A stretch of 64,000 nt of DNA from an uncultured Planctomycetales bacterium (GTDB lineage Bacteria > Omnitrophota > Gorgyraeia > Zapsychrales > Fredricksoniimonadaceae): NCBI GenBank assembly GCA_964572155.1, contig CAZNDZ010000001.1:718290-782289 (forward strand). The letters run 5' to 3'. The first letter of the stretch is position 1. Each line of letters begins with the position of its first letter. Under the pieces are notes generated by a model, which did not search any database, was not told the DNA's origin, and was given only the letters and a program-made list of their open reading frames with translations. The position numbers and the translations under genes were made by a program. Shown one piece after another: positions 36,049 to 64,000 of this stretch.

Positions 36049-36837
36049 ATGGAGAAAAGTATGGGCAAAAAAATAATGATTAATTTAACAAGTATGCTTC
36101 GCATGACCGTGCTCATGTTTGCGGTTTTTGCCTTATCGGCAAACGCTTCCGTGAATGCGGAAGACTTGCCAGATACCATGCCTCCATCGGAAGCGGAAGC
36201 GGCTGATCCTGCGGTTCAAGCAGCTCAAGAACGTGAACAATTTATTAAAGAAATCCGTCGTGTTGAGAATTTAAATCGTAAGTACACCGATCAAATCGAT
36301 GAGATCAAGGGCTTGCTCGCAGAAAAAGATGCAGATTTTCAAAAGCGCATGAAAGAATTGGAAGACAAAATGGCTTCCCAACAAAATGATGAAGGTAAAA
36401 AGAGTGTTGCTAAAGAACAAGAAACACAAATGTCTAAAGAATTAGAAAACAAAACTAATGAAATGTTGTCTAAGGGTGGTGATTTAGATCCAGAAGATCA
36501 ACAATTCAAAGAAGAATTAGCCAAAGCACATTACAACATGGGTAATATTTACTTTGAACGCGGTGAATATCAACGTGCTGTCGTCGAATATTACCAAGCA
36601 GTTGATTTAGTTCCTAATGATGCAGATACACATTACAATTTAGCTTTTATCAGTGGTGAATATTTAGGAGATCAAGAAACAGCGTTGAAGCATTATCAAT
36701 GGTACTTATATCTCAAACCAAACGCTGATGATAAAGATGCTATCAACGAAAAAGTTTTACAAGCAAAGATTCACTTAAGAGCAAAGATTGATTCACCGTT
36801 AGATAAAGATAATGGCAATTATAATTTGACCCGTTAA
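36049..36837 (+). CDS. Secreted TPR / coiled-coil protein, a possible secretin-associated (pilotin/PilF-like) factor.
   Basis: It has a signal peptide and a long charged coiled coil. TPR repeats are present (AHYNMGNIYFERGEYQRAVVEYYQAVDLVPNDADTHYNLAF). Its stop overlaps the next start. Confidence 0.5.
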   Translation: MEKSMGKKIMINLTSMLRMTVLMFAVFALSANASVNAEDLPDTMPPSEAEAADPAVQAAQEREQFIKEIRRVENLNRKYTDQIDEIKGLLAEKDADFQKRMKELEDKMASQQNDEGKKSVAKEQETQMSKELENKTNEMLSKGGDLDPEDQQFKEELAKAHYNMGNIYFERGEYQRAVVEYYQAVDLVPNDADTHYNLAFISGEYLGDQETALKHYQWYLYLKPNADDKDAINEKVLQAKIHLRAKIDSPLDKDNGNYNLTR

Positions 36838-40104: not shown

Positions 40105-43100
40105 ATGTTAAAAATTAAATTACAGTTAAAGAAACTGTGCGTCACAACGGTCATATTGATCGTCATGTCGATGGTTTCTTCCTCTGCATTTGCCCAATAC
40201 TCTGGCGGTTCACAAACTGGCAGCGGCGAAGCCACGATCGGTCAAGACATCTTCAAGGGTGGTCGCCAAGGTTCTTCCACCGTCGGAACTTCTAATGGTG
40301 GTTCTGCTTTATCTCATGGCGTAGCAACAAAGCTATATTTCGCTGTACAACCATCAGCGTCAAAACACAGTCACACCTTTGATCGTCAACCTGTAGTTGT
40401 TGTTCAAGATGCGAACGGAAATACAGTAACTGACGATAATACCACCCAAATCAAACTTGAAATCGGCAACAATCCAGGCAATGGGTATATCGAAGGTGTA
40501 ACCACGATTACAGTTGTTAATGGTGTTGCAACATTTTCAAATTTAAACATCAGCAAAGCTGGCCCACTATACACGTTAAAAGCTTCAGCAACAGGTCTTA
40601 CAACAGCATATTCAGAATCATTCGAGATTTATGCAGGTACTGGTCCAAAGGTTGCCGCAGTTTGGGATAATGCTGCAGGAAAATATCGCATTTATACTTG
40701 GGTTGAACAAGATAATCAAAGGCAAGATGTTGATAATACAGGTGATGATACCTGTGATACCCATACTATTTATGCATACGATGGTTCAACAGAAGCAACA
40801 TTAACAATGACAAAAGATGATGCAAATGATTATTGTTACACCGCTTCAGGAGATGCATGGACACCATCTAGTACAGCCAATTCCTATTTTCTTGATTTTC
40901 AGATTACGCTCGATGCTTCTTCTTATAGAACCTATGCTCCATTAGATTTAATTAAACCTGCTTTACAAGGCATTAGAGCGAAGACTGATTTAATTAATTG
41001 GACAAACGTTACAGATATTAAATCTAAAACAGACACGATTAACTGGACAGATGTCACGACCATTAATGCTCATACCAATAGCATCAATTGGCAAGATATT
41101 GGGGTCTTAAAATCAAACGTCAGCAGCATCAAATCAATAACAGACACCATTGATACATCAGTTAATTGGCAAGACATTGTTGTTCAAACGAAATCAGGTG
41201 TAAATTGGAAAGACATAGCTAGCACAACATTAAAGGGTATCAACTGGGATGATTTAAGCGTCTTAACAAATGTTGCGGTGAACTGGCGCGAACTTAATGT
41301 ATTAGGTAGAGCCGGTGTCAACTGGAACGACTTAAATACATTAACGCGCATTGGCGTCAATTGGCGTGATTTTGAAGTATTAGGTCGTGCACGTGTTAAT
41401 TGGTCTTCGATGGCTGAAATGGGTAAGGTTGGTATCAACTGGTATGACATGGCAGTCATGTCTGGTGCCCGTGTTACTTGGTCACAACAAATCAATTGGT
41501 ATAGCTTAGCTGATTTAACCACCGCTGGTGTTAATTGGTCGGATTTAAACGTTATGTCTGCAAAAAATATCAATTGGACCGACATCAATTCATTGAGTCG
41601 TGCAGGCGTTAATTGGAATAATTTCGGTTTATTAACCACAGTAGGTGTTAATTGGAATGATTTAACAGTCTTCTCAAGAACAATTATCAACTGGGATGAT
41701 TACGCCGTTCTTAGTCGTTCTGGAATCAATTGGGCGAACTTTGGTAATTTAACAACATCCAGCATTAACTGGAATGACATCAATGTTTTGTCGAGAAATG
41801 GCGTCAATTGGAACGACTTTGGTGTTCTCTCAAAAGCTGGCGTTAATTGGAACGATCTGCGTATCTTCACCAGAGCTGGTGTTAACTGGCAAGGCTTAAA
41901 TGTTTTTAGCAACACTTACGTTAATTGGGATGGGTTAAACCTTATGTCCACCAACGGCGTCAATTGGACAAATATTGGTTTACTCTCAACTGTAGGAGTT
42001 AATTGGGCAGATCTTAACGTAATGAGCCGCACTGGTGTAAACTGGGGCGATTTAAACCGCATGAGTGGTTTGGGTGTTAATTGGGCGGACTTAAATCGCT
42101 TAAGTGCCGTCGGTGTTAATTGGGCAGATTTAAATGTCTTAACAAAGTCTGGTATTAATTGGTATGACATGAACAGTTTCACAAAGGCGGGAATCAATTG
42201 GACAGACTTTGGTGTATTTAGTAAGACTGGCATCAATTGGAACAATATTAATATTTATGCAAGTGCCAATGTTAACTGGCAAGGGTTATATGTCTTAACA
42301 ACCAGTGGCATCAATTGGTCAAACATTGGAACCATGACAAGTACAGGTATTAATTGGAATGATTTTGCTGTCATGACTGTTAAGAGTTTGAATTGGGAAG
42401 ATTTTGGTATCCTGTCAAAGGTTGGCGTGAATTGGACAGATCTTGGAACATTTAGTAAAGCAGGTGTCAATTGGTATGATATTCAATCCATGGGTACTAA
42501 AGGAATTAACTGGAATGATTTTAATATATTAAGCAAAGCTTCAATTAATTGGACAGATTTTGGTTCTCTTGGCAAAGCAGGTATCAATTGGAACGATATT
42601 GGTGTTCTTTCTAAAAATGGCGTCAATTGGCAAGATTTAAATGTCATGTCTAAAGTAGGTATAAATTGGACTGATTTTAATCGTTTATCTGGTGTAGCGG
42701 TCAATTGGTCTGACATTGGTGTTTTATCAAAGATTGGAGTTAATTGGCAAGATTTCAACGTCATCAGCAAAGTTGGCGTTAATTGGAATGATTTTGGAGT
42801 TTTATCCAAAGCTGGTGTGAATTGGAGAGATTTAAATATCTTAAGCAGCACAGGTGTCAATTGGTATGACATGAATATTTTAAGCAATACTGGAACCAAT
42901 TGGTCTAATTTTGCTGTATTAAGTAAAGTTGGCGTTAATTGGAATGATTTTGGAGTTCTCTCAAAGGCAGGGATCAACTGGAATGATTTGACAGTGATGA
43001 GCCGCACCAATGTCAACTGGGGTGATTTAAATCGCATGAGCAGCCTCGGTGTAAATTGGGCAGATTTAAATCGCATGAGTGGACTTGGTGTCAATTGGCA

Positions 43101-52100: not shown

Positions 52101-55100
52101 CAACTGGAGTGATTTCGGGGTCATGTCAAAGACAGGCGTTAACTGGTATGACTTAAATGTCTTATCAAGGGTTGGCGTTAATTGGTATGACATGAATGTA
52201 CTGACTCGTAATAGCATCAACTGGAACAGCATTGCATCCTTAAGCTTAAATGGCATCAATTGGTCTAACTTCACAGTGATGTCACGCGCAGGTGTTAACT
52301 GGGTAGATTTAGGTGTCTTGTCTACATCATCTGTCAATTGGACAGGGATGAATGTCCTGTCTAATGCCAGCGTCAACTGGATCGGTATCGCTGATTTATC
52401 TCATACCAATGTTAACTGGGCTGCGTTACAAGATATTTCTTCCGCAAATGTTAACTGGGAAGGTATCGGTGTCTTAAGTAATTCTGGCGTTAATTGGAGC
52501 GACATCACGGTCTTAAGTAAGAACGGCATTAACTGGAGCGACCTATCTGTATTAGGTAGAACGGGCATCAATTGGAATGATATTGGTGTTGTTTCTAAGA
52601 CAGGCATCAATTGGAACGATTTGAATATCTTAAGCAAGACAGGCATCAATTGGTATGACATGAATCGTCTTTCTAACACAGGCATTAACTGGAATGATAT
52701 CGGCGTGTTAAGTAAGAACGGCGTTAACTGGAATGATTTCAATGTCATTAGTAAAGTTGGTATCAATTGGAGCGATTTAGGTGTGTTAGGCAAGACAGGC
52801 ATCAATTGGTATGACATGAATGTCTTGTCTAAGACAAATATCAATTGGAGCGATTTAAATGTCTTAACCAAGACAGGTATCAATTGGTATGACATGAACA
52901 TCTTGAGCAAGACCGGCATCAATTGGTATGACATGAATGTCTTAAGCAAGACAGGCATCAATTGGAATGACTTTGGTGTGTTATCGAAGAATGGCATTAA
53001 TTGGAATGACATGGGCGTCTTAACTAAAGTTGGCATCAATTGGAGCGACTTCAATGTTCTCTCTAATTCAGGGGTCAATTGGTATGACATGAATGTCTTA
53101 ACCAAGTCAGGTGTTAATTGGTATGACTTAAATGTCTTATCTAAGAATGGCATTAACTGGAATGATTTTGGTGTCTTGTCAAAGGTTGGCATCAACTGGA
53201 ATGACTTTAACGTCTTAAGCAAGAGCAATATCAATTGGTATGATTTCAACGTCTTAAGCAAGGTCGGCGTTAATTGGAGAGACTTAGGGATCTTAACCAA
53301 GTCCTCAATCAATTGGCAAGGATTGAACGACTTATCAAATTCAGGTGTCAACTGGACAAACTTAAGCATCTTAAGTGCTGCGTCCGTTAACTGGAGCGAT
53401 TTTGGAACATTAAGTAAAGCTGGCGTTAACTGGAATGATTTAGGTGTCTTAAGTAGAACAGGTGTTAATTGGAGCGATTGGGGCGTTTTAACTAAGACTG
53501 GTATAAATTGGAGTGACTTAAATGTCTTAAGCCGTACAGGATTAAATTGGAATGACATCGGTGTCTTAAGTAAAGTTGGCGTGAATTGGAGTGATTTGAA
53601 TGTTGTCAGCCGCACAGGTGTCAACTGGAATGATTTTGGTGTGCTCTCAAAGACAGGCATTAACTGGGGCGATTTAGGTGTGTTATCTAAGACAGGTGTT
53701 AACTGGTATGACATTAATGTCTTAAGCAAAAATAATATCAACTGGAATGACATTGGCGTATTAGCCAAGGCTGGCATTAACTGGTATGACTTCAACATTT
53801 TAAGCAAAGCTGGCGTCAACTGGTATGACTTAAATGTCTTAGGCAAATCTGGCATCAATTGGTATGACATGAATGTTTTAACCAAGACAGGTATCAATTG
53901 GAACGATTTAGGTGTATTGGCAAAAGCTGGCATCAATTGGAGCGACATGAATGTCATGAGCCGCACCGGCGTAAACTGGGGCGATTTAAACCGCATGAGC
54001 AGCTTGGGCGTTAATTGGGCAGACTTAAATCGCATGAGCGGCATTGGTGTCAACTGGCAAGATATCTCGGTATTAAGTAAGAATGGCATCAACTGGAATG
54101 ACTTCGGTGTCTTAAGCAAGACAGGTATTAATTGGAATGACATTGGCGTGTTATCGAACACAAGCATCAATTGGTATGACTTTAACGTCTTAAGCAAGAC
54201 CGGCATCAACTGGAATGATTTAGGTGTGATTTCCAAGACCGGCATCAACTGGAGTGATATCGGTGTCTTAGCAAAGACGGGCATCAACTGGAATGATATT
54301 AATGTGGTCAGCCGCACCAATATCAACTGGAGTGATTTTACAGTCTTAAGCAAAACAGGTATTAATTGGAATGATATCAGCCGCTTATCTACCGTCGGTG
54401 TAAATTGGAACGATATTGGTGTGTTATCAAAGAATGGTATCAACTGGAACGACTTAAATGTCTTAAGTAAAACAGGCATCAACTGGAATGACTTTGGTGT
54501 GATGTCAAAGGTTGGCGTCAACTGGTACGACATGAATGTCTTAAGTCGCACCGGCATTAACTGGAATGACGTAAATACATTAACCCGCAACGGCATCAAC
54601 TGGAAAGATTTGAGTGTCTTTAGCAATGCCGCGATCAACTGGCAAGGTTTGAATGACTTGTCGAACTCTGGTGTTAACTGGACCAACTTAAGTATCTTGA
54701 GCTCAGCGTCGGTTAACTGGAGTGATTTAGGCGCATTAAGTAAAGCCGGCGTTAACTGGAATGACTTTGGTGTCTTAAGCAAAACAGGCGTCAACTGGAG
54801 CGATTTAGGTATCTTAAGCAAGACAGGCATCAATTGGTATGACATGAATGTCTTATCAAAGACTGGTATCAACTGGTATGACTTCAACGTCTTAAGCCGT
54901 GCCGGCGTCAATTGGGGTGACTTGAATGTTGTTAGCCGCACTGGCGTTAACTGGAATGACTTCGGAGTTCTCTCTAAGACGGGTATTAACTGGAATGATT
55001 TAGGTGTCTTGTCAAAGACAGGTGTCAATTGGTATGACTTCAATGTCTTAAGCCGTGCTGGTGTTAATTGGGGCGATATGAATGTGATCAGTCGCACCGG

Positions 55101-58100
55101 CATCAACTGGAATGACTTTGGCGTCTTATCAAAGGCTGGCGTTAACTGGCAAGATTTCAATGTGGTCAGCCGCGCAAACATTAATTGGTATGATTACAAT
55201 GTCTTAAGCAAAGCTGGTATCAACTGGAATGATTTCAATGTCCTTTCTAAGGCTGGCGTCAACTGGTATGACTTAAATGTGTTGGGCAAGTCTGGCATCA
55301 ATTGGTATGACATGAATGTTTTAACCAAGACAGGTATCAATTGGAACGATTTAGGTGTATTGGCAAAAGCTGGCATCAATTGGAGCGACATGAATGTCAT
55401 GAGCCGCACCGGCGTAAACTGGGGCGATTTAAACCGCATGAGCAGCTTGGGCGTTAATTGGGCAGACTTAAATCGCATGAGCGGCATTGGTGTCAACTGG
55501 CAAGATATCTCGGTATTAAGTAAGAATGGCATCAACTGGAATGACTTCGGTGTCTTAAGCAAGACCGGTATTAACTGGAATGACATTGGTGTCTTAGCCA
55601 AGACAGGTATTAATTGGTATGACTTCAACGTCTTAAGCAAGACCGGCATCAACTGGAATGATTTAGGTGTGGTCTCCAAGACGGGCATCAATTGGAGCGA
55701 TATCGGTGTCTTAGCAAAGACAGGCATCAACTGGAATGACATTAATGTGGTAAGCCGTGCAAATATCAACTGGTATGACTTTAACGTCTTAAGCAAGACA
55801 GGCATCAATTGGAATGACATGAGCCGCTTGTCAACAGTTGGTATCAACTGGAATGACATTGGTGTGTTGTCGAAGAATGGCATCAACTGGAACGACTTAA
55901 ATGTCTTAAGCAAAACAGGCATCAACTGGTATGACTTCAATCGTCTCTCTAATACAGGCATCAATTGGAGCGACATGAATGTCTTGAGCCGCACAGGTAT
56001 CAATTGGAATGATTTCAATGTCTTAAGCAAGACAGGTGTTAACTGGAGAGATTTGAGCGTCTTTAGTAATGCCGCGATCAACTGGCAAGGTTTGAATGAC
56101 TTATCAAATTCTGGTGTTAACTGGACTAATTTAAGTATCTTGAGTGCAGCGTCTGTCAACTGGAGTGACTTAGGTGCATTAAGTAAAGCAGGCGTTAACT
56201 GGAATGACTTTGGTGTCTTAAGCAAAACAGGCATCAACTGGAGCGATTTAGGTATCTTAAGCAAGACAGGCATCAATTGGTATGACATGAATGTCTTATC
56301 AAAGACTGGTATCAACTGGTATGACTTCAACGTCTTAAGCCGTGCCGGCGTCAATTGGGGTGACTTGAATGTTGTTAGCCGCACTGGCGTTAACTGGAAT
56401 GACTTCGGAGTTCTCTCTAAGACGGGTATTAACTGGAATGATTTAGGTGTCTTGTCAAAGACAGGTGTCAATTGGTATGACTTCAATGTCTTAAGCCGTG
56501 CTGGTGTTAATTGGGGCGATATGAATGTGATCAGTCGCACCGGCATCAACTGGAATGACTTTGGCGTCTTATCAAAGGCTGGCGTTAACTGGCAAGATTT
56601 CAATGTGGTCAGCCGCGCAAACATTAATTGGTATGATTACAATGTCTTAAGCAAAGCTGGTATCAACTGGAATGATTTCAATGTCCTTTCTAAGGCTGGC
56701 GTCAACTGGTATGACTTAAATGTGTTGGGCAAGTCTGGCATCAATTGGTATGACATGAATGTTTTAACCAAGACAGGTATCAATTGGAACGATTTAGGTG
56801 TATTGGCAAAAGCTGGCATCAATTGGAGCGACATGAATGTCATGAGCCGCACCGGCGTAAACTGGGGCGATTTAAACCGCATGAGCAGCTTGGGCGTTAA
56901 TTGGGCAGACTTAAATCGCATGAGCGGCATTGGTGTCAACTGGCAAGATATCTCGGTATTAAGTAAGAATGGCATCAACTGGAATGACTTCGGTGTCTTA
57001 AGCAAGACCGGTATTAACTGGAATGACATTGGTGTCTTAGCCAAGACAGGTATTAATTGGTATGACTTCAACGTCTTAAGCAAGACCGGCATCAACTGGA
57101 ATGATTTAGGTGTGGTCTCCAAGACGGGCATCAATTGGAGCGATATCGGTGTCTTAGCAAAGACAGGCATCAACTGGAATGACATTAATGTGGTAAGCCG
57201 TGCAAATATCAACTGGTATGACTTTAACGTCTTAAGCAAGACAGGCATCAACTGGAATGACATGAGCCGCTTGTCAACGGTTGGCATCAACTGGAATGAT
57301 ATCGGTGTCTTAGCCAAGACTGGTATTAATTGGAACGACTTAAATGTCTTAACCAAGACAGGCATCAATTGGAATGACTTTGGTGTGTTGTCAAAGGTTG
57401 GCGTTAATTGGAATGACTTAAATGTCTTAAGCCGCACTGGCATCAATTGGAATGACGTTAATACGTTAACACGCAATGGTATTAACTGGAGAGATTTGAG
57501 CGTCTTTAGTAATGCCGCGATCAACTGGCAAGGTTTGAATGACTTATCAAATTCTGGTGTTAACTGGACTAATTTAAGTATCTTGAGTGCAGCGTCTGTC
57601 AACTGGAGTGACTTAGGTGCATTAAGTAAAGCAGGCGTTAACTGGAATGACTTTGGTGTCTTAAGCAAAACAGGCATCAACTGGAGCGATTTAGGTATCT
57701 TAAGCAAGACAGGCATCAATTGGTATGACATGAATGTCTTATCAAAGACTGGTATCAACTGGTATGACTTCAACGTCTTAAGCCGTGCCGGCGTCAATTG
57801 GGGTGACTTGAATGTTGTTAGCCGCACTGGCGTTAACTGGAATGACTTCGGAGTTCTCTCTAAGACGGGCATTAACTGGAATGACTTAGGTGTGTTAAGT
57901 AAGAATGGTGTCAATTGGTATGATTTCAATGTCTTAAGCAAGTCTGGCATCAATTGGAACGATATGAATGTCTTAACCAAGACTGGTATCAACTGGTATG
58001 ACATGAATGTCTTGAGCAAATCTGGCGTTAACTGGTCTGACCTAAATGTATTAACCAAGACAGGCATCAATTGGTATGATTTCAATGTCCTAAGCAAGGC

Positions 58101-61100: not shown

Positions 61101-64000
61101 AACGGGTGTTAATTGGAACGACATCAATTTGATCACCAGACTTGGCATCAACTGGAATGACTTAAATGCACTTAGCCGCACAGGTATTAATTGGAGTGAT
61201 TTTGCAGTATTGGCTAAGACGGGCATTAATTGGAATGATCTTGGTCGCTTGAGCACTGTTGGCATCAATTGGAATGATTTCAATGTCTTAAGCAAGACAG
61301 GTATCAACTGGAATGATTTAGGTGTCTTAAGCAAGACGGGTATCAATTGGAATGATATGAACCAAATGACACGCATCGGAGTCAATTGGAACGATATTGG
61401 CGTATTAAGCAAGACAGGTATTAATTGGAATGACTTTGGTGTATTAGCTAAGACGGGTATTAATTGGAATGATCTTGGTGTATTATCAAAGGCTTCAATT
61501 AATTGGGCTGGTATGAATACATTGAGTAATGCTGGTGTAAACTGGGCAAATTTAGGCATCTTAAGTAACGCGCAAGTTAATTGGTCTGATTTTGGAACTT
61601 TATCTAAGGCTGGCATTAACTGGAATGATTTAGGCATTATGAGCGAAATTGGCATCAACTGGCAAGACTTCAATCGTTTAAGCAGCACGGGCATTAATTG
61701 GAATAACATGAGCGTTATGAGCCGTGTCGCAATCAATTGGAATGACTTTGCAACGTTAAGTAATACAGGTATCAATTGGAACGATTTAGGTGTGGTCAGT
61801 AAGACGGGTGTCAATTGGAATGACTTTGGTGTCTTAAGCAAGACAGGTATCAATTGGTCAGACATTGGAGTTTTAGCGCGTACAGGTATTAATTGGAGTG
61901 ATTTCAATGTCTTAAGCAAGACAGGTATCAACTGGAATGACTTTGGTGTGTTGTCTAAAGTTGGGGTAAATTGGAATGACTTTGGTGTCTTAAGTAAGAC
62001 AGGTATTAACTGGAATGATTTAGGTGTATTAGGCAAGGTTGGCATTAACTGGAATGACTTTGGTGTATTAACTAAAACAGGCATCAATTGGAGCACCTTT
62101 GATGTGATTAGCAAAACAAATATTAATTGGAACGACTTTGGAGTTATGAGTAAGACTGGCATCAATTGGGGTGATTTAGGCGTCTTATCACGATCATCGA
62201 TTAATTGGGCTGGCATTACGTCACTCGCAAGTTCAGGCGTTAATTGGGAAAACTTCGGGGTCTTAACGAGCGCCGGTGTTAACTGGACCAACTTAAGTCA
62301 ATTAGCTGGCTCATCAATCAACTGGTCAGATTTAGGTGTGATGAGTACCACGGGTGTGAATTGGAGCGATCTTAATACCTTAAGCCGTACGGGTGTCAAT
62401 TGGAATGACTTTGGCGTCTTAGCTAAGGCTGGTATTAACTGGAATGACATGGGCGTATTAAGCCGCACCAGCATTAACTGGAGTGATTTCAGAGCGCTTA
62501 GCACCACAGGTATTAATTGGAATGATTTCAATATTCTGTCTAAGACGGGCATCAATTGGAGTAGCTTAGGTGTATTAAGCTCCTCTGGTATCAATTGGAC
62601 TGACTTCCAACGCTTAAGTACGACAGCAATCAATTGGGAAGATTTTGGAAGATTATCCACAGTCGGTATTAATTGGAATAACTTTGGTGTGATGAGCACG
62701 GTTGGTGTTAATTGGAATGATATCAACACATTGTCTAAGGCTGGTATTAACTGGAATGACTTAGGTGTTTGGAGCAAGGCAGGTATCAACTGGTCCAACT
62801 TTGACCTATTGACTAGAACAGATATCAACTGGAGTGATTTCTCATCCTTAACAAGAAATGGCATCAACTGGTCCAGCTTAGGTCAAATGAGTCAAGCAGG
62901 TGTTAATTGGAATGACTTTGCTGAGCTTGGTAGAATTGGCGTCAATTGGGAAGATTTCAATATCTTAACCCGCACAGGCATCAATTGGTCCAACTTTGGT
63001 GATATGACAACCAAGGGCGTCAACTGGATGGATATGAATCGTTTAACCATGGCTGGTGTGAATTGGAATGACATGAATGTGTTGACCAAGGCGGGCGTTA
63101 ATTGGGCTGGTATGTCTAACTTAACCAACAGCGGTGTAAATTGGGAAAGCATTGGTGGTTTATCTCGTACAACAATTAACTGGTTAGCGTTGGAAACAAT
63201 TTCTAGCGCAGGCGTCAACTGGGAAGGTATTGGTGTCATGAGCGACGCTGGTGTTAACTGGGCTGATTTTGCGAACCTCAGTACCCGTGGCGTCAATTGG
63301 GATGAAATTAGAAAAGTCACTGAAACAGGTATCAATTGGCAAGACTTAAACAGCCTTACAAACTCTGGTATTAACTGGAATAGCATCGGTTCCTTAACAA
63401 CATCGAACATTAATTGGACAGGCATTGATGTGATCTCTAGAACAACAATTAACTGGAATGATATTGGCAGATTATCAACTGTCGGTATCAACTGGACTGA
63501 TGTGTCTAAACAACATTCTGTTGGCATCAACTGGTACGACTTTGCCTTACAAACTGGTGCAGGTATTAATTGGGAAAATGTTTCGAGCGGTCAGTCTGGC
63601 GTCAACTGGGCAGGTATCAACTTCTTGATCAGCGGTGCTAGCGCGTTAAATAGAATTGGTGCAGCAACCGACTCAGCTAGCGCATCATCTACCACCTTGT
63701 TTGGAAAGCTTGGCTATGTGTCAGATCAGGTTACAAATTTAGGAACTACAACCGGATCTGCTGTTGATACTGTACTAACAACCGTGAATACAATTTCAGA
63801 TACATTGGGTTCTTCAACAGACACATCAGCATCAAACACGATCTTTGGTGATATCAAGAATGTTGAAGCCTACATTGGTACCAACACAACTGGTCAAAGC
63901 ATCTTTACAAACTTAGCGAATATTTCAACAGCCGCCACCAAGGGCAAGAGCAGTGCGGATGCTGCCTTAGGTTATACTCAAGAAATCATTGCGGCTATCG
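40105..64000 (+). CDS. Giant secreted tridecapeptide-repeat protein, 3' end truncated by the window. At least 7,965 aa lie inside the window.
   Basis: The ATG is at 40105, after AAAAAGGG. The signal peptide is MLKIKLQLKKLCVTTVILIVMSMVSSSAFA|QY. Frame 1 is open wherever checked: 40105 to about 43600, then 47041, 50461, 52381, 56641, 60481 and 63541-63999. The array begins at about 40981. The ORF track has no + entry only because no stop occurs before the window end. Confidence 0.85.
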   Translation, partial: MLKIKLQLKKLCVTTVILIVMSMVSSSAFAQYSGGSQTGSGEATIGQDIFKGGRQGSSTVGTSNGGSALSHGVATKLYFAVQPSASKHSHTFDRQPVVVVQDANGNTVTDDNTTQIKLEIGNNPGNGYIEGVTTITVVNGVATFSNLNISKAGPLYTLKASATGLTTAYSESFEIYAGTGPKVAAVWDNAAGKYRIYTWVEQDNQRQDVDNTGDDTCDTHTIYAYDGSTEATLTMTKDDANDYCYTASGDAWTPSSTANSYFLDFQITLDASSYRTYAPLDLIKPALQGIRAKTDLINWTNVTDIKSKTDTINWTDVTTINAHTNSINWQDIGVLKSNVSSIKSITDTIDTSVNWQDIVVQTKSGVNWKDIASTTLKGINWDDLSVLTNVAVNWRELNVLGRAGVNWNDLNTLTRIGVNWRDFEVLGRARVNWSSMAEMGKVGINWYDMAVMSGARVTWSQQINWYSLADLTTAGVNWSDLNVMSAKNINWTDINSLSRAGVNWNNFGLLTTVGVNWNDLTVFSRTIINWDDYAVLSRSGINWANFGNLTTSSINWNDINVLSRNGVNWNDFGVLSKAGVNWNDLRIFTRAGVNWQGLNVFSNTYVNWDGLNLMSTNGVNWTNIGLLSTVGVNWADLNVMSRTGVNWGDLNRMSGLGVNWADLNRLSAVGVNWADLNVLTKSGINWYDMNSFTKAGINWTDFGVFSKTGINWNNINIYASANVNWQGLYVLTTSGINWSNIGTMTSTGINWNDFAVMTVKSLNWEDFGILSKVGVNWTDLGTFSKAGVNWYDIQSMGTKGINWNDFNILSKASINWTDFGSLGKAGINWNDIGVLSKNGVNWQDLNVMSKVGINWTDFNRLSGVAVNWSDIGVLSKIGVNWQDFNVISKVGVNWNDFGVLSKAGVNWRDLNILSSTGVNWYDMNILSNTGTNWSNFAVLSKVGVNWNDFGVLSKAGINWNDLTVMSRTNVNWGDLNRMSSLGVNWADLNRMSGLGVNWQDFTVLTKAGINWTDFGVIGRTGINWYDLNVFTKSGINWTDFGVYTKVSINWVSLALQSTNAVNWNDVAKLSASNVNWNFFSALSTTNVNWNDITVLSKAGINWNDIGVLAANGVNWNDLNVLTKVGVNWNDFAVLGKSGINWRDLGILSTVAINWQDFNVMSKTGVNWGDLNRMSSLGVNWADLNRMSALGVNWADFNVLTRSGINWNDFGVLSKTGVNWNDLGVLAKAGVNWNDFGVLSKIGINWNDLNVLSKVGTNWRDFAVLSTVAVNWQDMNVISKSGVNWNDFGVLSKSGVNWQDLNVLSKNGINWNEFVVLGRAGINWQDINVISKVGVNWSDFNVLSRNGVNWQDLNVLSKAGLNWQDFNVLSKSRVNWQDFTVLSSAAINWQDINVLSKAGANWQDLNVLTKGGVNWQDINTLTKAGINWQDMNQLTRTGINWQDVNVLTKTGVNWQNFNVLTSSGINWQDLNVLSKTAINWNDFGVLAKAGVNWNDLNVLSKSGVNWNDFGVLSKNGVNWNDLNVLTRSGINWNDMNALSRAAVNWNDFNVLTRTSINWQDFTSLSKAGVNWNDLNVLSKTGINWQDFNVITRTNVNWQDLNVLSKAGVNWNDFGVLTNSSVNWTGLNLLTTAGVNWANLNVLSTTGVNWADFGVLTKIGVNWSDLNVLTKSGVNWQDFGVLSKVGVNWQNFNVLSNAGINWNDIGVLAKTGINWNDLNVMSRTGVNWGDLNRMSSLGVNWADLNRMSGLGVNWADFTVLTKAGVNWNDFGVMSRVAANWYDLNVFTRASINWNDFGVLAKAGINWNDLNVVTKANVNWNDFAVLSKIGVNWQDMNVLTRNAVNWSDFSVMSRSSINWQGLNTLTTAGVNWTNLNVLSSTGVNWTDLGILTTTGINWQDFNTLSKAGVNWNDLGVLSKTSINWQDFTVLGKAGINWNSLGVMSKVGVNWNDFTVMSRSNVNWADLNSMSSLGVNWADLNRMSGLGVNWQDFTVLTKAGVNWNDFGVMSRVAVNWSDFNVLSKSGINWSDLGVLGKTGINWNDFNVLSKSSINWNDLGVLAKAGVNWNDFNVLSKSGVNWNDLNVLSKAGVNWNDINVITRVGVNWNDFVVLGRAGVNWNDFGVVSKTGINWNDFGVLAKAGINWNDLNVLSKVGVNWNDFGVLGKAGINWNDLNVLSRAAVNWSDINVLSKIGVNWQDLNVLTKTGVNWSDMGALSKAGVNWQNIGILSTVGVNWQDFNTLSKAGVNWNDFGVLSKVGVNWSDLNVLSKTGINWNDFGALSKIGVNWQDLNVLSKAGLNWNDIGVLSKTGINWNDFAVYSKVGINWQDFGVLSKAGLNWTDFGVLSKTGVNWQDLNVLTRNGVNWNDFGVLSKAGVNWNDLNVLSKIGINWSDFNVLTKSSINWNDLNVLSKSGVNWNDFGVLAKTGVNWQDFNVLTRTGVNWNDFGVISKVGVNWQDLNTLSKVGINWQDFAVLAKTSINWQDFAVLGKAGVNWNDFGVLSKSGVNWQDLNVMSRSAVNWGDLNHMSSVGVNWADLNRMSGLGVNWQDFTILTKAGVNWNDFGVMSKVGVNWSDLNVVSKIGVNWSDFTVLSKIGVNWQDLNVMSKVAVNWGDFAVLSKTSINWNDMNVLSRNNINWNDFGVMSKVGVNWNDMNVLSKANINWYDMNVLSKIGVNWQDLNVVSKTGVNWNDFGVMSKVGVNWNDLNVLSKSGINWHDFGVLTKSAVNWSGLNSLSTAGVNWSNLNLLSSANVNWTDLGILSSAGVNWNDMARLTTTAINWNDINVLTRTGINWNDLNVLSRIGMNWADYSVQTRAGINWYDLNVMSRTGVNWGDLNLMSSLGVNWADLNRMSGLGVNWQDFNVLTKAGINWNDFGVMSKVGANWNDLNVLTKVGINWMDVSVLGKTGINWQDLNTLSKSGINWNDFGVLSKIGVNWNDLNVLSRTGVNWNDVGVLSKTGVNWQNMNVLSNVGINWNDIGVLSKNGVNWNDLNVLTKSGINWNDIGVFSRVNINWQDLNVFSRTGINWNDFGVLSKIGVNWSDLGVMSKVAVNWSDFSVLSKTGLNWNDLNVLSRNNINWNDFGVISKVGINWNDMNVLSKANVNWIDVGVLSKTGVNWQDLNVLSKTAINWNDFGVLSKVGVNWNDFNVISKVGVNWNDFGVLSKIGVNWTDFGSLTKANINWNDLNVIGRTGINWNDFGVLSKVGVNWNDMNVLTKSGINWYDFNVLSKAGVNWYDMTVMTRNSVNWAGLSSLSNAGVNWTNLGILTSANVNWSDLGTLSKASINWVDIGLLGTSGINWSDVSVLSRTSVNWNDLNVLTKSGVNWNDFGVMSKIGVNWSDLNVISRTGVNWNDFGVLTKTAVNWQDLSVASRIGVNWNDFGVLSKIGVNWQDMNVLSKNGINWLDMNVLTKAGVNWSDAATLSKASINWNDFAVLGKTGINWYNFNVLSRVGVNWNDLAVMSRSSVNWSDLNSMSSLGVNWADLNRMSGLGVNWSDITVLSKSGINWNNFGVLSTVGINWNSLSVMGNVGVNWNDIQVISKTGINWNDLNVLTKTGVNWNDFGVMSKVGVNWSDLNVLSRTSINWNDMNVLTRIGVNWQDLNVLSKTGVNWNDFGVMSKIGVNWQDFNVLSKTGVNWNDFGVISKTGINWYDLNVLTKSGVNWNDFGVLSKVGVNWYDMNVITRNGINWNDFGVLSKAGVNWSDMNVITRIGMNWSDMSVLSKTGLNWSDIGVLSKTGVNWNDLNVVSRTGINWNDFGVLSKIGVNWSDMNVLSKTGINWYDFNVLSRAGINWRDLNILTKTSVNWVGLSSLSNAGVNWTNLGTLTSSSVNWSDLGALSNAGVNWNDFGVLSKTGINWQDLNVFTRASINWSDFGVLSKTGINWYDLNVVTKAGLNWNDIGVLSKNGINWNDIGVLSKVGINWNDISVVSKTSVNWSDLNVLTKAGINWNDFGVYSKAGINWYDMSVYSKVGINWYDMNILTKSGVNWNDLSILSKTAINWSDFGVMSKTGVNWYDLNVLSRVGVNWYDMNVLTRNSINWNSIASLSLNGINWSNFTVMSRAGVNWVDLGVLSTSSVNWTGMNVLSNASVNWIGIADLSHTNVNWAALQDISSANVNWEGIGVLSNSGVNWSDITVLSKNGINWSDLSVLGRTGINWNDIGVVSKTGINWNDLNILSKTGINWYDMNRLSNTGINWNDIGVLSKNGVNWNDFNVISKVGINWSDLGVLGKTGINWYDMNVLSKTNINWSDLNVLTKTGINWYDMNILSKTGINWYDMNVLSKTGINWNDFGVLSKNGINWNDMGVLTKVGINWSDFNVLSNSGVNWYDMNVLTKSGVNWYDLNVLSKNGINWNDFGVLSKVGINWNDFNVLSKSNINWYDFNVLSKVGVNWRDLGILTKSSINWQGLNDLSNSGVNWTNLSILSAASVNWSDFGTLSKAGVNWNDLGVLSRTGVNWSDWGVLTKTGINWSDLNVLSRTGLNWNDIGVLSKVGVNWSDLNVVSRTGVNWNDFGVLSKTGINWGDLGVLSKTGVNWYDINVLSKNNINWNDIGVLAKAGINWYDFNILSKAGVNWYDLNVLGKSGINWYDMNVLTKTGINWNDLGVLAKAGINWSDMNVMSRTGVNWGDLNRMSSLGVNWADLNRMSGIGVNWQDISVLSKNGINWNDFGVLSKTGINWNDIGVLSNTSINWYDFNVLSKTGINWNDLGVISKTGINWSDIGVLAKTGINWNDINVVSRTNINWSDFTVLSKTGINWNDISRLSTVGVNWNDIGVLSKNGINWNDLNVLSKTGINWNDFGVMSKVGVNWYDMNVLSRTGINWNDVNTLTRNGINWKDLSVFSNAAINWQGLNDLSNSGVNWTNLSILSSASVNWSDLGALSKAGVNWNDFGVLSKTGVNWSDLGILSKTGINWYDMNVLSKTGINWYDFNVLSRAGVNWGDLNVVSRTGVNWNDFGVLSKTGINWNDLGVLSKTGVNWYDFNVLSRAGVNWGDMNVISRTGINWNDFGVLSKAGVNWQDFNVVSRANINWYDYNVLSKAGINWNDFNVLSKAGVNWYDLNVLGKSGINWYDMNVLTKTGINWNDLGVLAKAGINWSDMNVMSRTGVNWGDLNRMSSLGVNWADLNRMSGIGVNWQDISVLSKNGINWNDFGVLSKTGINWNDIGVLAKTGINWYDFNVLSKTGINWNDLGVVSKTGINWSDIGVLAKTGINWNDINVVSRANINWYDFNVLSKTGINWNDMSRLSTVGINWNDIGVLSKNGINWNDLNVLSKTGINWYDFNRLSNTGINWSDMNVLSRTGINWNDFNVLSKTGVNWRDLSVFSNAAINWQGLNDLSNSGVNWTNLSILSAASVNWSDLGALSKAGVNWNDFGVLSKTGINWSDLGILSKTGINWYDMNVLSKTGINWYDFNVLSRAGVNWGDLNVVSRTGVNWNDFGVLSKTGINWNDLGVLSKTGVNWYDFNVLSRAGVNWGDMNVISRTGINWNDFGVLSKAGVNWQDFNVVSRANINWYDYNVLSKAGINWNDFNVLSKAGVNWYDLNVLGKSGINWYDMNVLTKTGINWNDLGVLAKAGINWSDMNVMSRTGVNWGDLNRMSSLGVNWADLNRMSGIGVNWQDISVLSKNGINWNDFGVLSKTGINWNDIGVLAKTGINWYDFNVLSKTGINWNDLGVVSKTGINWSDIGVLAKTGINWNDINVVSRANINWYDFNVLSKTGINWNDMSRLSTVGINWNDIGVLAKTGINWNDLNVLTKTGINWNDFGVLSKVGVNWNDLNVLSRTGINWNDVNTLTRNGINWRDLSVFSNAAINWQGLNDLSNSGVNWTNLSILSAASVNWSDLGALSKAGVNWNDFGVLSKTGINWSDLGILSKTGINWYDMNVLSKTGINWYDFNVLSRAGVNWGDLNVVSRTGVNWNDFGVLSKTGINWNDLGVLSKNGVNWYDFNVLSKSGINWNDMNVLTKTGINWYDMNVLSKSGVNWSDLNVLTKTGINWYDFNVLSKAGINWNDFGTLTKTGINWYDFNILSKTGINWNNFGVLSKVGINWNDMSVMSRASVNWADLNSMSSLGVNWADLNRMSSIGVNWNDIGVLSKTGINWNDFGVISKTGINWNDFGVLTKVGVNWNDLGVLAKTGINWSDFNVLTKTGINWSDLGVLAKTGVNWNDIGVLAKTGINWNDLNVLSRTNINWSDFGVLSKNGINWYDMNVLSRAGINWNDIGVLAKTGVNWNDFGVLSKTGINWNDLGVLAKASINWSDIGVLSKTGVNWNDLNVISRTGVNWNDFGVLSKVGVNWNDLNVLSQSSINWQDFNVLSKTGVNWRDLGVLTKSSINWQGLNDLTNSGVNWTNLSILSAASVNWSDLGALSKAGVNWNDFGVLSKNGINWNDMNVMSRTGVNWSDLNRMSSLGVNWADLNKMSSIGVNWQDIGVLSTTGINWHDFGVLSKTGINWNDFGVIGKMGINWSDFTVLSKVGINWNDMSVLSKNGINWNDIGVLAKTGINWNDLNVISRTNVNWSDIGVLSKTGLNWNDLNVLTRTGINWSDFGVLAKTGVNWNDLGVLSKTGVNWNDIGVLAKTGINWNDFGVLSKTGINWNDFGVLAKSGINWNDFGVMTKTGLNWNDLNVLTRTGINWYDMNRLSNTGINWNDMARLSTVGINWNDIGVLAKTGINWNDLNVLSKTAINWNDIGVLSKNGINWSDMNVLSRTGINWNDFNVLSRVAVNWRDMSVLSNASINWRGLNDLSNSGVNWTNLSILSAAAVNWSDFGALSKAGVNWNNLGVMSTVGINWNDFSKLSQTGINWNDLNVLSKSGINWSGIDVLSSAGVNWQNFGVLTNAGVNWTNMSLLSASAINWTDLGVMTTIGVNWNDIQALTTKGVNWNDFGVLSKVGINWNDMSVLARTGINWNDFNVLSRNGINWYDMNRLSNTGINWNDISVLARTGINWNDLGVVSKTGINWNDFGVLSKNGINWNDLGVLSKTGLNWSDFAVMGKTGINWNDLGVLSKTGVNWNDINLITRLGINWNDLNALSRTGINWSDFAVLAKTGINWNDLGRLSTVGINWNDFNVLSKTGINWNDLGVLSKTGINWNDMNQMTRIGVNWNDIGVLSKTGINWNDFGVLAKTGINWNDLGVLSKASINWAGMNTLSNAGVNWANLGILSNAQVNWSDFGTLSKAGINWNDLGIMSEIGINWQDFNRLSSTGINWNNMSVMSRVAINWNDFATLSNTGINWNDLGVVSKTGVNWNDFGVLSKTGINWSDIGVLARTGINWSDFNVLSKTGINWNDFGVLSKVGVNWNDFGVLSKTGINWNDLGVLGKVGINWNDFGVLTKTGINWSTFDVISKTNINWNDFGVMSKTGINWGDLGVLSRSSINWAGITSLASSGVNWENFGVLTSAGVNWTNLSQLAGSSINWSDLGVMSTTGVNWSDLNTLSRTGVNWNDFGVLAKAGINWNDMGVLSRTSINWSDFRALSTTGINWNDFNILSKTGINWSSLGVLSSSGINWTDFQRLSTTAINWEDFGRLSTVGINWNNFGVMSTVGVNWNDINTLSKAGINWNDLGVWSKAGINWSNFDLLTRTDINWSDFSSLTRNGINWSSLGQMSQAGVNWNDFAELGRIGVNWEDFNILTRTGINWSNFGDMTTKGVNWMDMNRLTMAGVNWNDMNVLTKAGVNWAGMSNLTNSGVNWESIGGLSRTTINWLALETISSAGVNWEGIGVMSDAGVNWADFANLSTRGVNWDEIRKVTETGINWQDLNSLTNSGINWNSIGSLTTSNINWTGIDVISRTTINWNDIGRLSTVGINWTDVSKQHSVGINWYDFALQTGAGINWENVSSGQSGVNWAGINFLISGASALNRIGAATDSASASSTTLFGKLGYVSDQVTNLGTTTGSAVDTVLTTVNTISDTLGSSTDTSASNTIFGDIKNVEAYIGTNTTGQSIFTNLANISTAATKGKSSADAALGYTQEIIAAI
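40981..63610 (+). repeat. Coding tandem array of about 580 copies of a 39-bp (13-aa) unit, consensus (V/I)LSK(T/A)G(V/I)NW(N/x)D(F/L)(G/N), inside the giant gene.
   Basis: An invariant TGG (Trp) codon recurs every 39 nt. The first few units are 15 aa (TDLINWTNVTDIKSK), and the array settles to 13 aa by about 41160. Units differ mostly at synonymous sites, such as ggt/ggc/gga and aat/aac. Confidence 0.9.
53881..57890 (+). repeat. Three near-identical tandem copies of a 1,443-bp higher-order unit (37 x 39 bp) inside the array.
   Basis: The sequence from 53881 is repeated from 55324 and again from 56767, an offset of 1,443 bp each time. Long stretches are nucleotide-identical, for example 54841.. 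with 56284.., and 56030.. with 57470... Copy 3 diverges between about 57300 and 57470. Confidence 0.85.

Follow-up and report, generated by a model that had tools for sequence, protein, structure and literature searches.

What kind of protein is encoded by a single reading frame of almost 24 kilobases that consists almost entirely of one 13-residue unit? The frame lies in a 64,000-nucleotide stretch of DNA (hereafter the window) from contig CAZNDZ010000001.1, which is assigned to the phylum Omnitrophota. Members of this phylum are widespread, uncultured and very small, and they are thought to live on other cells. Most of their giant genes have few or no annotated domains, and the "giant ORFs" of the phylum have been described as such (Seymour et al., 2023; PMC10066038). 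We call the product of the gene presented here the NW13 protein.

A giant gene built from a 13-residue repeat

The reading frame begins with an ATG at nucleotide 40105 and continues on the plus strand to the end of the window at 64000, through 7,965 codons that include no stop codon and no N. It is complete at its 5′ end, whereas the window end cuts its 3′ part. The protein therefore has at least 7,965 residues, and ~8,080 are expected, given that the last residues in the window ("...KSSADAALGYTQEIIAAI") align 114 residues ahead of the C-terminus of the ortholog P0003. A Sec-type signal peptide occupies residues 1-30 (40105..40194, plus strand), with a cleavage site read by eye between ...SSSAFA and QYSGG. 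This peptide is the sole hydrophobic segment of the protein, containing the only 19-residue window with a Kyte-Doolittle value above 1.6. Orthologs whose N-termini are complete likewise begin with a hydrophobic leader in the alignment, and most of these keep the A-x-A motif followed by QYSGG.

Modeling of an ortholog combined with Foldseek places two tandem Ig-like beta-sandwich domains after the leader, at approximately residues 74-286 (40324..40962, plus strand). The equivalent region of P0003 (residues ~75-290) is predicted to be all beta with a pLDDT of 82-97, and Foldseek matches it to tandem Ig-like domains of the S-layer proteins SlaB and Sap, of titin and of SiiE. This head is conserved across nine aligned N-termini, and a Pfam search with it gave no match. 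The repeats are introduced by a transition of four irregular NW units of the "IK(A/S)KTDTINWxD" type (40990..41170, plus strand), whose spacings are 15, 15 and 26 residues; the 15-residue spacings are seen again in orthologs. The NW13 array with its 579 NW units spans 40996..63609 (plus strand), of which 567 are consecutive at exactly 13 amino acids (39 nucleotides) from ~41488 to ~63600. A non-repeat C-terminal module then begins at 63610..64000 (plus strand) with Ser/Thr-rich "T(L/I)FG" segments, and it aligns with the C-terminal fragments of orthologs. Beyond the window it continues as a helical tail, which in P0003 is predicted to form long helices with a pLDDT of up to 88.

The original prediction of about 580 tandem Trp-containing 13-residue units at 40981-63610 is borne out closely. 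The frame holds 579 NW dipeptides, with the first at nucleotide 40996 and the last ending at 63609, and Tandem Repeats Finder reports a period of 39 together with its multiples 78, 117 and 156. The distance from one NW to the next is exactly 13 residues in 573 of 578 cases, and the 567 units in unbroken succession include no indel across ~7,360 amino acids. Amino acid self-identity is 0.02-0.07 at lags 1-12 and 0.54-0.57 at all tested multiples of 13, up to lag 3003. Neither Pro nor Cys is present in residues 297-7965. The array is composed of 16% Asn, 11% Val, 10% Gly, 9% Ser and 8% Trp, with 3.8% Ala and 0.2% Glu.

The consensus unit is G-[IV]-N-W-x-D-[LF]-[NG]-V-L-S-K-[TA]. When residues are counted over 585 thirteen-residue windows, one centered on each Trp of the frame, Trp is present in all 585 by construction, Asn in 579, Asp in 501, and Gly at position -3 from Trp in 466. 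The remaining conserved positions carry Ile or Val in 562, Val in 415, Leu in 422, Ser in 400, and Lys or Arg in 433. The unit had been described as an invariant Asn-Trp flanked by Gly, which is true for the N-terminal side alone because position +4 from Trp is Gly in only 37% of units and Asn in 44%. The long minus-strand frames listed over 41184-63530 are shadows of the repeat.

An old array with a recent block duplication

Might such extreme regularity simply be an artefact, either a misassembly or a satellite without coding function that is open by chance in one frame? A near-identical block of 37 units within the array is the type of region that assemblers can miscount, and most relatives in the databases are broken at contig ends. 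However, one frame stays open for 23.9 kb, the G+C content of the array equals that of the flanking genes (0.403 versus 0.41), and orthologous arrays in more than 40 genomes have the same register, head and tail. Moreover, nonsynonymous differences across unit pairs are far fewer (pN 0.30) than the saturated synonymous ones (pS ~0.75). An artefactual origin is thus effectively refuted, and the NW13 protein is the product of a real gene, with ~8,000 residues that are nearly all NW repeat. Only the number of copies counted for the 37-unit block may still reflect an assembly error.

The comparison between units also reveals the history of the array. Synonymous sites are saturated whether adjacent, lag-2 or random pairs of units are compared (pS 0.74-0.76 versus pN 0.30), and where residues are identical, their codons agree at a rate of 0.45-0.50 whatever the lag. 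The sequence GVNW is written as ggtgttaattgg 35 times, as ggcgtcaactgg 11 times and as ggagtaaattgg twice, and G[VI]NW has 36 codings in total. All three of the GVNW codings that had been cited as evidence for constraint on the protein exist, and the conservation of the protein amid scrambled codons is real. Because pS is saturated while pN is 0.30, we conclude that the array arose long ago and that purifying selection maintains it.

It had further been argued that the array is not a recent DNA expansion. This holds for most of its length only, because ~70 units derive from a recent higher-order tandem duplication of the 37-unit block (1,443 nucleotides), which is present in ~2.8 near-identical copies at 53812..57867 (plus strand). 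In a unit-by-unit identity matrix, nucleotides 54631-55839 and 56074-57282 are 98.8% identical over 31 units, and nucleotides 56035-56424 and 57478-57867 are 99.7% identical; exact 50-mers from the block recur at an offset of 1,443 nucleotides. Arrays of this type can grow, as this one shows, when blocks of 37 units are duplicated within a sequence that is otherwise old and diverged. Block scans indicate that the order of units is partly colinear with that in the closest relative, L001.

The repeat belongs to a new family

The repeat had been regarded as unassignable, and it indeed has no match above threshold in Pfam, NCBIfam, PHROGs or the sequences of the PDB. The Pfam scan covered the first ~800 residues, one 500-residue segment from the middle of the array, and the last 233 residues. 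Head, array and tail returned only sub-threshold low-complexity scores summed over repeats from Pfam-A and NCBIfam. Pox_A31, Ntox33, Lysostaphin_N, RimP and others are sums of this type over a repetitive query, and we set them aside as artefacts of periodicity and composition. PHROGs contain no match to the repeat, and nothing meaningful was found among PDB sequences with either the array profile or the C-terminal fragment P0015.

Several well-known short repeats were proposed to be distinct from this one, and the proposal stands for RTX, pentapeptide, hexapeptide, Ig/cadherin and choline-binding repeats. The period of 13 differs from that of the RTX nonapeptide (HemolysinCabind, GGxGxDxUx), which has no match in Pfam or NCBIfam. 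The score of Pentapeptide_4 is 21.1 bits, its cut-off is 38 and no single stretch reaches it by itself; the identity at lag 5 is 0.057. Similarly, the identity at lag 6 is 0.073, and the Hexapep family of left-handed beta-helices has no match in either collection. The choline-binding and cell-wall-binding repeats have units of ~20 residues, and no CW_binding match was found in Pfam or NCBIfam. Nor does the unit qualify as a leucine-rich repeat, whose core is LxxLxLxxNxL with 20-29 residues per coil. A PilY1/PilC beta-propeller finds no counterpart, in that no Pfam family matches the tail in the window or the complete C-terminus of the ortholog L008, and the tail is modeled as helical.

The N-terminal repeats of lysostaphin (PF25533) also have a period of 13 residues and are the sole repeat family that Pfam reports repeatedly for NW13 proteins. 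However, the scores are 17-32 bits (17.3 and 28 in the window, 26.8-31.9 in relatives) against a gathering score of 60, and the likeness is one of periodicity only. The Lysostaphin_N motif is acidic, contains Pro and lacks Trp. A search of the literature on 13-residue or tridecapeptide repeats and on Omnitrophota giant genes found no description of the NW13 repeat. NW13 is a new repeat family, although long extracellular rods and adhesins are already known as a kind.

Predicted fold of the array

The original prediction favored a beta-solenoid or stacked beta-hairpins, and structure prediction agrees with it in part. The array was aligned as 35 non-overlapping, in-register rows, and its AlphaFold2 models cover monomers only. 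The best model of 16 units is all beta, with a pLDDT of 68.3 and a pTM of 0.66, and in its best part strands start every 26 residues (97/123/149 and 110/136/162). However, the remaining four of five models are poor (pLDDT 33-51), and a run with the full-length ortholog P0003 draws the array as one short helix per unit at a pLDDT of 35-50.

The sequence of the unit carries additional hints. Composition and Chou-Fasman analysis show that strand-favoring and turn-favoring positions alternate. Position 6, which is Leu or Phe, alternates with a period of two units, giving identities in the window of 0.21, 0.38, 0.20 and 0.36 at lags 1-4, and the same alternation is present in the distant arrays L001, L034 and L038. 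In the window it weakens beyond ~4 units. This alternation could partly reflect duplication history because Tandem Repeats Finder detects 78-nucleotide periods. Mutual information declines steadily as units lie farther apart, and it displays no two-unit peak.

On balance, the array most likely folds as a parallel beta-solenoid, a reading that is moderately supported by these models. Each unit would contribute one short strand at I-N-W-x and another at V-L-S, with turns of Asn, Asp and Gly between them, and one coil of the solenoid would take up 26 residues, or two units. The resulting rod might be ~140 nm long, or ~280 nm if each unit were to form a coil of its own. Alternatively, the array might be a homo-oligomeric fiber, such as a trimeric beta-spiral-like shaft as in viral fibers, or a helical repeat, or a flexible, elastomeric chain. 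The AlphaFold2 runs do contradict each other, a count of five hydrophobic residues in a 13-residue unit is high for the core of a monomeric solenoid, and the helical tail could be an oligomerization module. In addition, weak relatives (P0033) carry irregular G[IV]NW motifs ahead of tailspike-like domains. Against this, the helical drawing lacks confidence, a helix would need to accommodate Asn, Asn, Asp and Gly or Asn in most units, and the absolute conservation of spacing and of Asn-Trp speaks against disorder. We therefore consider a fold other than the solenoid unlikely. Trimeric beta-spiral and triple beta-helix shafts of viral fibers (repeats of ~8 or ~15 residues) have no sequence relation to NW13 in PHROGs or the PDB.

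If the solenoid is correct, the closest structural analogs would be the right-handed parallel beta-helix fibers, in which coils of ~22-27 residues stack into parallel sheets and which include the TPS passengers EtpA and HxuA, autotransporter passengers, phage tailspikes and the pectate-lyase fold. The identity is 5-13% with no sequence relation, and the NW13 model is of medium confidence. In NW13 the repeat is much shorter and much more regular, with 567 units of 13 residues and no indel, and the protein is devoid of a TPS domain, an autotransporter barrel and a catalytic face, with a secretin system as the adjoining export machinery. Ice-nucleation proteins of the InaZ type and insect antifreeze beta-helices also carry short tandem repeats (16 and 12-13 residues, respectively) in long uninterrupted arrays that are thought or shown to be beta-solenoids. 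Nevertheless, the NW13 motif differs from theirs, with no Thr-x-Thr ice-binding faces and no disulfides (the array has no Cys). Its copy number is ~10-fold greater, its genomic context is another, and there is no sequence match. With 567 units of invariant NW and no indel, Pro or Cys, NW13 is an extreme among natural repeat proteins. Because it belongs to no curated family and structure prediction does not settle its fold, the array is well worth pursuing by cryo-EM and in the design of repeat proteins.

Relatives and a conserved secretin locus

We found 33 sequence relatives, and all those with an organism name are from Candidatus Omnitrophota/Omnitrophica. Among species-representative genomes, 50 loci were retrieved, and orthologs are present in more than 40 species genomes that are mostly titled Omnitrophota. 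In nearly all retrieved loci the orthologous frame continues, with up to 259 exactly spaced units, to the flank or the contig end. UniProt orthologs come from RIFCSP Omnitrophica genomes (contigs MHHG01000041 and MHFR01000026). The giant protein family comes so far mainly from genomes titled Omnitrophota and has a fixed architecture of Ig-like head, up to ~580 units and helical tail. Several weak matches of the representative search lack any Trp and were set aside as other repeats, and P0029, a TonB-dependent receptor joined to three NW units, was left out as an apparently chimeric contig.

Upstream of the giant gene and on the same strand, Pfam and NCBIfam identify an S41 C-terminal processing peptidase (30084-31328) followed by two GT2 glycosyltransferases (31670-32386 and 32733-33719), an order that is the same in ~30 loci. 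These three genes may be functionally linked to the giant gene. A tightly packed run on the plus strand then opens with a GspC/PilP-like protein (33782..34399) that matches Pfam T2SSC (3.3e-4) and, below cut-off, NCBIfam GspC_delta (8.4e-5), and that is syntenic in ~40 loci. It is followed by a secretin of the PilQ/GspD type (34396..36036; Pfam Secretin, 3.3e-49; Secretin_N, 8.6e-22), for which the PilQ and GspD models score ~237 bits, both under their own cut-offs. The secretin is syntenic in ~40 loci at 40-87% identity. The next gene (36049..36837), also syntenic, encodes a TPR protein that matches TPR families and, weakly, PilW and Tgl, and it is a candidate secretin pilotin.

Two paralogous FGE-sulfatase-type secreted proteins complete the upstream set (36837-38429 and 38386-40050, plus strand; Pfam FGE-sulfatase, 1.4e-12 and 2e-16), with N-terminal signal peptides read by eye. 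In most loci, one or two such copies lie immediately upstream of the giant gene. The genes from 33782 to 40105 overlap or sit at close spacing, and no terminator-like site was found between the FGE-like genes and the giant gene. Overall, the order S41, GT2, GT2, GspC-like, secretin, TPR, FGE-like, NW13 is preserved in ~40 loci, which could partly represent general genome synteny rather than a functional operon. The original prediction mentioned neither the Omnitrophota origin nor the conserved secretin/pilus gene cluster, and it also passed over the Ig-like domains of the head and the helices of the tail.

The window ends before the 3′ end of the giant gene, and the downstream context is taken from other genomes. 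In four independent contigs the gene is followed by a membrane protein of 387-456 residues (two frames in L051), an operon for an F-type ATPase and then a PilB-like ATPase; PilC is reached in three of the four and a pilin-like gene in one (L052). Beyond the window the same order is expected, ending in PilB, PilC and pilins. A "symbiotic F-type ATPase/T4aP locus" of Omnitrophota has been defined by the presence of type IV pilus genes no more than 10 kb from an operon for a non-respiratory F-type ATPase (PMC10066038), and giant genes with adjoining secretion-system loci have been reported in the phylum (bioRxiv 10.1101/2023.11.21.568195). Judged from the orthologous contigs, the NW13 locus appears to be of this published type. 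The arrangement, with an F-type ATPase that is presumably of the non-respiratory subtype, is seen in four such contigs, and the window represents its secretin side only. By its fixed place in a pilus/secretin/F-type ATPase locus, the NW13 protein becomes a candidate for the cargo or filament of this locus, whose proposed role in symbiosis can thereby be tested.

Proposed role of the NW13 protein

With somewhat better than even confidence, we hypothesize that the NW13 protein is a Sec-exported, non-membrane, long extracellular rod or adhesin with a parallel beta-solenoid array, deployed by a secretin/pilus machine for holding other cells. An extracellular character is suggested by the signal peptide with no further hydrophobic segment, by the confidently modeled Ig-like head, and by NW13 arrays in other proteins that adjoin Laminin_G_3, Ig_Rha78A_N, GLUG/M26_N and InlB-B-repeat domains. 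The giant gene is the final member of a tight run that encodes the GspC/PilP-like protein, the secretin, the PilW/Tgl-like TPR protein and the two FGE-fold proteins. After export by Sec, a type IV pilus/type II secretion-like machine would pass the protein across the outer membrane or hold it there. The rod could then bridge the distance to other cells as a long tether or spacer, by which very small cells that depend on a host would reach them and stay attached.

Binding to glycan or cell wall was also raised in the original prediction, and length might instead serve avidity rather than reach if the array were chiefly a multivalent surface for binding carbohydrate or cell wall, such as peptidoglycan, chitin, cellulose or the S-layer glycan of a host. 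Sugar-binding faces typically show ladders of aromatic and amide side chains, and Trp, Asn and Asp hardly vary, if at all, from unit to unit. Among the domains that adjoin NW13 arrays in other proteins, Laminin_G_3 and Ig_Rha78A_N are lectin-type and glycosidase-associated, and two GT2 genes are syntenic with the giant gene. However, Pfam and NCBIfam report no match to a carbohydrate-binding family, and invariant Trp and Asn would suit a structural ladder in the core of a solenoid equally well, such that we find a primarily glycan-binding role quite improbable.

We assign a similarly low probability to a structural role in the envelope, in which the protein would be a coat, a sheath, an S-layer-like lattice or a periplasm-spanning element of the pilus/ATPase system rather than a projecting adhesin. 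The best Foldseek matches of the head are the S-layer proteins SlaB and Sap, an anchor to the envelope could be provided by the helical C-terminal tail together with the bitopic membrane protein that is conserved downstream, and coat formation has been proposed for Omnitrophota giant proteins (PMC10066038). Yet the Ig-like matches are generic, with titin and SiiE scoring equally. Pfam revealed neither an anchoring motif nor an S-layer motif of any known type in the scanned segments of the window or the C-terminus of L008, and one unbranched, indel-free array of 7,360 residues resembles a rod more than a lattice subunit.

A projecting rod has precedents in SprB of Flavobacterium, LapA/MpIBP and SiiE, which likewise comprise thousands of residues, are mostly repeated extender, and have export genes adjoining. 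Binding domains are located at one end of these proteins, and the Ig-like domains of SiiE match the NW13 head. Their extenders are Ig-like domains of 90-100 residues exported by type I or type IX systems, whereas NW13 has a 13-residue unit and a secretin neighbor. The FGE-fold proteins GldJ and GldK are part of the SprB export machine; NCBIfam models give no support for identifying the FGE-like proteins of the window as GldJ/GldK.

A more far-reaching idea, which we hold to be very doubtful, is that Omnitrophota possess an attachment or motility apparatus not yet described, with the rod as its working filament. A fiber of more than 100 nm, folded in a way that is new for a short repeat (either a solenoid with two units, or 26 residues, per coil or a shaft of several chains), would be pushed out or gripped by a secretin of the type IV pilus type. 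The helical tail and the conserved membrane protein downstream would couple it mechanically to the F-type ATPase encoded nearby, which would resemble that of Mycoplasma gliding.

Other giant proteins of Omnitrophota share with NW13 the phylum, genes of more than 20 kb, few or no annotated domains, neighbors like those of type II or type IV secretion, and a proposed part in contact with host or prey (bioRxiv 10.1101/2023.11.21.568195; PMC10066038). Archaeovorins are marked by numerous transmembrane regions, along with a SecA DEAD-like domain, HEAT repeats and many enzyme domains (West-Roberts et al., bioRxiv 10.1101/2023.11.21.568195), whereas the NW13 protein has no hydrophobic segment past its signal peptide and no such Pfam domains in the scanned segments. 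Dockerin-type giant proteins combine dockerin with TSP3 repeats (bioRxiv 10.1101/2023.11.21.568195), and neither has a match in the NW13 protein in Pfam or NCBIfam. In contrast to both groups, the NW13 protein is formed from one new 13-residue repeat. Tryptic peptides such as TGINWNDFGVLSK are diagnostic for the NW13 protein.

A giant gene encodes a strictly regular Asn-Trp repeat

Beginning with an ATG at nucleotide 40105, a + strand reading frame runs without a stop codon or N through the final base of the window, a total of 7,965 codons. It contains 579 Asn-Trp dipeptides, the first at nucleotide 40996 and the last ending at nucleotide 63609, and the spacing between them is exactly 13 residues in 573 cases. 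The array of this repeat, which we call NW13, starts with four irregular units (spacings of 15, 15 and 26 residues) and a short run of eight, after which 567 units follow in a row with zero indels across ~7,360 residues. Specifically, the consensus is G-[IV]-N-W-x-D-[LF]-[NG]-V-L-S-K-[TA], in which Asn and Trp are nearly invariant, the Asp is conserved at 86%, the leading Gly is present in 80% of units, and the hydrophobic residues hold fixed positions. Residue identity is 2-7% at lags of 1-12 and 54-57% at all tested multiples of 13, up to 3003, and Tandem Repeats Finder reports a period of 39 and multiples thereof. The array is rich in Asn (16%), Gly (10%), Ser (9%) and Trp (8%), and carries neither Pro nor Cys. 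Translation of the frame, the Asn-Trp count and a codon tally agree with the original prediction of about 580 units at 40981-63610, including its motif and codon examples.

The same prediction held that the repeat family could not be assigned. Indeed, the Ig-like head, the array and the helical tail of the protein all lack above-threshold matches in Pfam-A, NCBIfam and PHROGs, and no PDB sequence is matched. Searching 1.84 billion representative proteins with an array profile recovers just 440 at E<=0.001 and 33 at E<=1e-30. These are mainly fragments, and Trp is missing from several of the weak hits. Surface proteins that are giant and repetitive are already known, as are giant genes in Omnitrophota. 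What is new relative to the libraries and papers searched is the Asn-Trp unit of 13 residues, together with its extreme regularity and fixed position at a pilus/ATPase locus (see below); the repeat is undescribed in Seymour et al. (PMC10066038), in West-Roberts et al. (bioRxiv 10.1101/2023.11.21.568195) and in a preprint from 2026 that deals with long proteins of Omnitrophota.

The array is old and still growing

Nei-Gojobori comparisons of unit pairs give a saturated pS of 0.74-0.76 and a pN of 0.30, as expected from the earlier suggestion of purifying selection at the protein level. Both values are equal for adjacent, lag-2 and random pairs. Where two units share a residue, codon identity is 0.45-0.50 whatever the distance, approximately what codon usage alone would give, and the G+C content of the array equals that of flanking genes. 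Furthermore, ten-unit blocks find their best matches in roughly colinear order, with small shifts, in the closest relative found (locus L001), so much of the array is older than that species split.

The view that the array is not a recent DNA expansion thus holds for most of its length, but fails at nucleotides 53,812-57,867, where a 37-unit block (1,443 nt) occurs in ~2.8 tandem copies with 98.8-99.7% nucleotide identity. Units outside this duplication are ~60% identical to each other. The near-identical block reflects either a recent unequal crossover or a copy miscount by the assembly; that the array as a whole is an artefact is scarcely conceivable. Given the saturated pS, the low pN, the colinearity with L001 and the recent 37-unit copies, the array is old and under purifying selection, yet is growing through block duplication.

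Predicted fold and architecture of the NW13 protein

The original prediction envisaged a beta-solenoid or beta-hairpin fibre. AlphaFold2, given 35 aligned, non-overlapping, in-register 16-unit segments as monomers, offers partial support: one of five models is all beta (pLDDT 68.3, pTM 0.66), with two short strands per unit formed by I-N-W-x and V-L-S, whereas the remaining four score 33-51, and a run on the related protein P0003 gives every unit of the array a single short helix, with pLDDT of 35-50. Along the unit, strand-favouring and turn-favouring residues alternate, and helix formers are few. Independently of any model, the Leu/Phe position (position 6) alternates with a two-unit period in the window and in the distant arrays of L001, L034 and L038; against this, mutual information between units has no two-unit peak. 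Our best guess is that the array would form a solenoid in which each coil takes up two units. A fibre that is oligomeric, or not a solenoid at all, is somewhat unlikely. Solenoids generally rise 0.48 nm per coil, and by this geometry two-unit coils would produce a rod of ~140 nm.

Fragments that cover the N-terminus of related proteins have in common a signal peptide, the short segment 'QYSGG' and ~210 conserved residues. In P0003, the latter are modelled by AlphaFold2 as two beta-sandwich domains (pLDDT 82-97), for which Foldseek retrieves Ig-like domains that lie in tandem in S-layer proteins, titin and the SiiE adhesin. 'TLFG' segments rich in Ser and Thr recur among the C-terminal fragments, as does a tail that finishes with VVVK(A/S)W(Y/F)E and is predicted in P0003 to form long helices (pLDDT up to 88). 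The signal peptide is the only transmembrane segment found in the NW13 protein. Because the final residues of the window align 114 residues short of the P0003 C-terminus, the complete protein is expected to comprise ~8,080 aa.

The giant gene adjoins secretin, pilus and ATPase genes

Upstream, a dcw cluster that looks complete (1253-17000; mraW, an ftsI-type PBP, murE, murF and mraY, with further same-strand ORFs up to ~16650) shows that the window is chromosomal DNA of a peptidoglycan-making organism. It is followed by two large genes (17673-24302) encoding an apparently membrane-bound protein of 667 aa and a signal peptide-bearing protein of 1,513 aa, neither matching a Pfam or NCBIfam family, and then by glycine-cleavage genes, an S41 peptidase and two GT2 glycosyltransferases. 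The final run comprises a GspC/PilP-like protein, a PilQ/GspD-type secretin, a PilW/Tgl-like TPR protein, two FGE-fold proteins and the giant gene. From 33782 on, neighbouring genes overlap or almost touch, and no terminator-like site was found ahead of the giant gene. This upstream order is conserved in ~40 loci, though secretin identity drops to 40%.

The FGE-fold proteins (36837-40050) are secreted paralogues of ~530-555 aa that combine a C-terminal FGE-sulfatase-fold domain with a shared N-terminal part of no assigned type, and one or two copies directly precede the giant gene in most loci. Since the array lacks Cys, it is unlikely to be their formylglycine target. Assignment as GldJ/GldK is not supported, as neither protein matches those models.

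The window stops before the 3' end of the giant gene, and the downstream order was therefore read from four independent contigs that hold it. All four continue with one or two proteins without a family, an F-type ATPase operon and a PilB-like ATPase; PilC is reached further downstream in three, and a pilin-like gene in L052 only. Directly after the giant gene, L008 (12538-13845), L052 (1545-2708) and L053 (5301-6671) have a single conserved protein of 387-456 aa without a family match, and L051 has two ORFs (300 and 231 aa). In L008 the protein is bitopic: a hydrophobic segment at the N-terminus and a transmembrane helix at the C-terminus flank a long, charged stretch that is probably helical. 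It is a candidate for partnering or anchoring the helical tail. Seymour et al. (PMC10066038) describe co-location of this kind, between genes for type IV pili and for a non-respiratory F-type ATPase, as a 'symbiotic' locus found in all Omnitrophota classes, and West-Roberts et al. (bioRxiv 10.1101/2023.11.21.568195) report secretion-system genes upstream of Omnitrophota giant genes.

With the existence of the gene established, along with the selection acting on it, its architecture and its synteny, we lean modestly toward the NW13 protein being a long secreted surface rod for reaching or holding other cells. It would be exported by Sec and then pass, or be retained by, the adjoining secretin machine. 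Such a rod could hold the Ig-like domains away from the envelope or tie the helical tail to it, and might help these very small cells to get to a host or prey cell and keep hold of it. An array acting as a lectin-like avidity surface is rather improbable, and a role as an envelope or coat component is about equally so; both are compatible with a surface rod. The main value of the protein is that it offers a target for structural work and a way into the 'symbiotic' locus.

Variation among relatives

All relatives with an organism name are Candidatus Omnitrophota hypothetical proteins. Scanning species-representative genomes with the conserved N-terminus yields 50 loci, most titled Omnitrophota, many bearing automatic titles (for example 'uncultured Planctomycetales') and a few naming other groups. 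Orthologous ORFs carry up to 259 exactly spaced units before the 10-kb flank or contig ends, and database proteins are short because the giant gene breaks assemblies. The sole closed orthologue among the 50 loci, L008 (9929-12535; P0003, 868 aa), has only ~33 units, with none of the 'TLFG' segments seen in other C-terminal fragments; it is either genuinely short or the product of a collapsed assembly of short reads.

Thirteen minus-strand ORFs over the window's array (168-1,276 aa; 41184-63530) are shadows of the stop-poor repeat rather than genes, and a gene caller could list them wrongly.

The strict 13-residue rule has loosened in some lineages: L020 and L021 include 10-11 units at 17-residue spacing amid 13-residue units, and in L036 and L042 the loss of every second Trp leaves many spacings of 26 residues. 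Other secreted proteins of multidomain type also contain arrays, of 7 to ~70 units, along with Laminin_G_3, Ig_Rha78A_N, GLUG/M26_N and InlB-B-repeat domains, so the unit acts as a module of extracellular proteins. Finally, four weak relatives (P0031, P0032, P0033 and P0069) place irregular G[IV]NW motifs before tailspike- or tail-fibre-like C-terminal parts, and P0033 matches tail spike and virion structural PHROGs. These hints from sequence suggest that the motif may serve in phage-like fibres as well.
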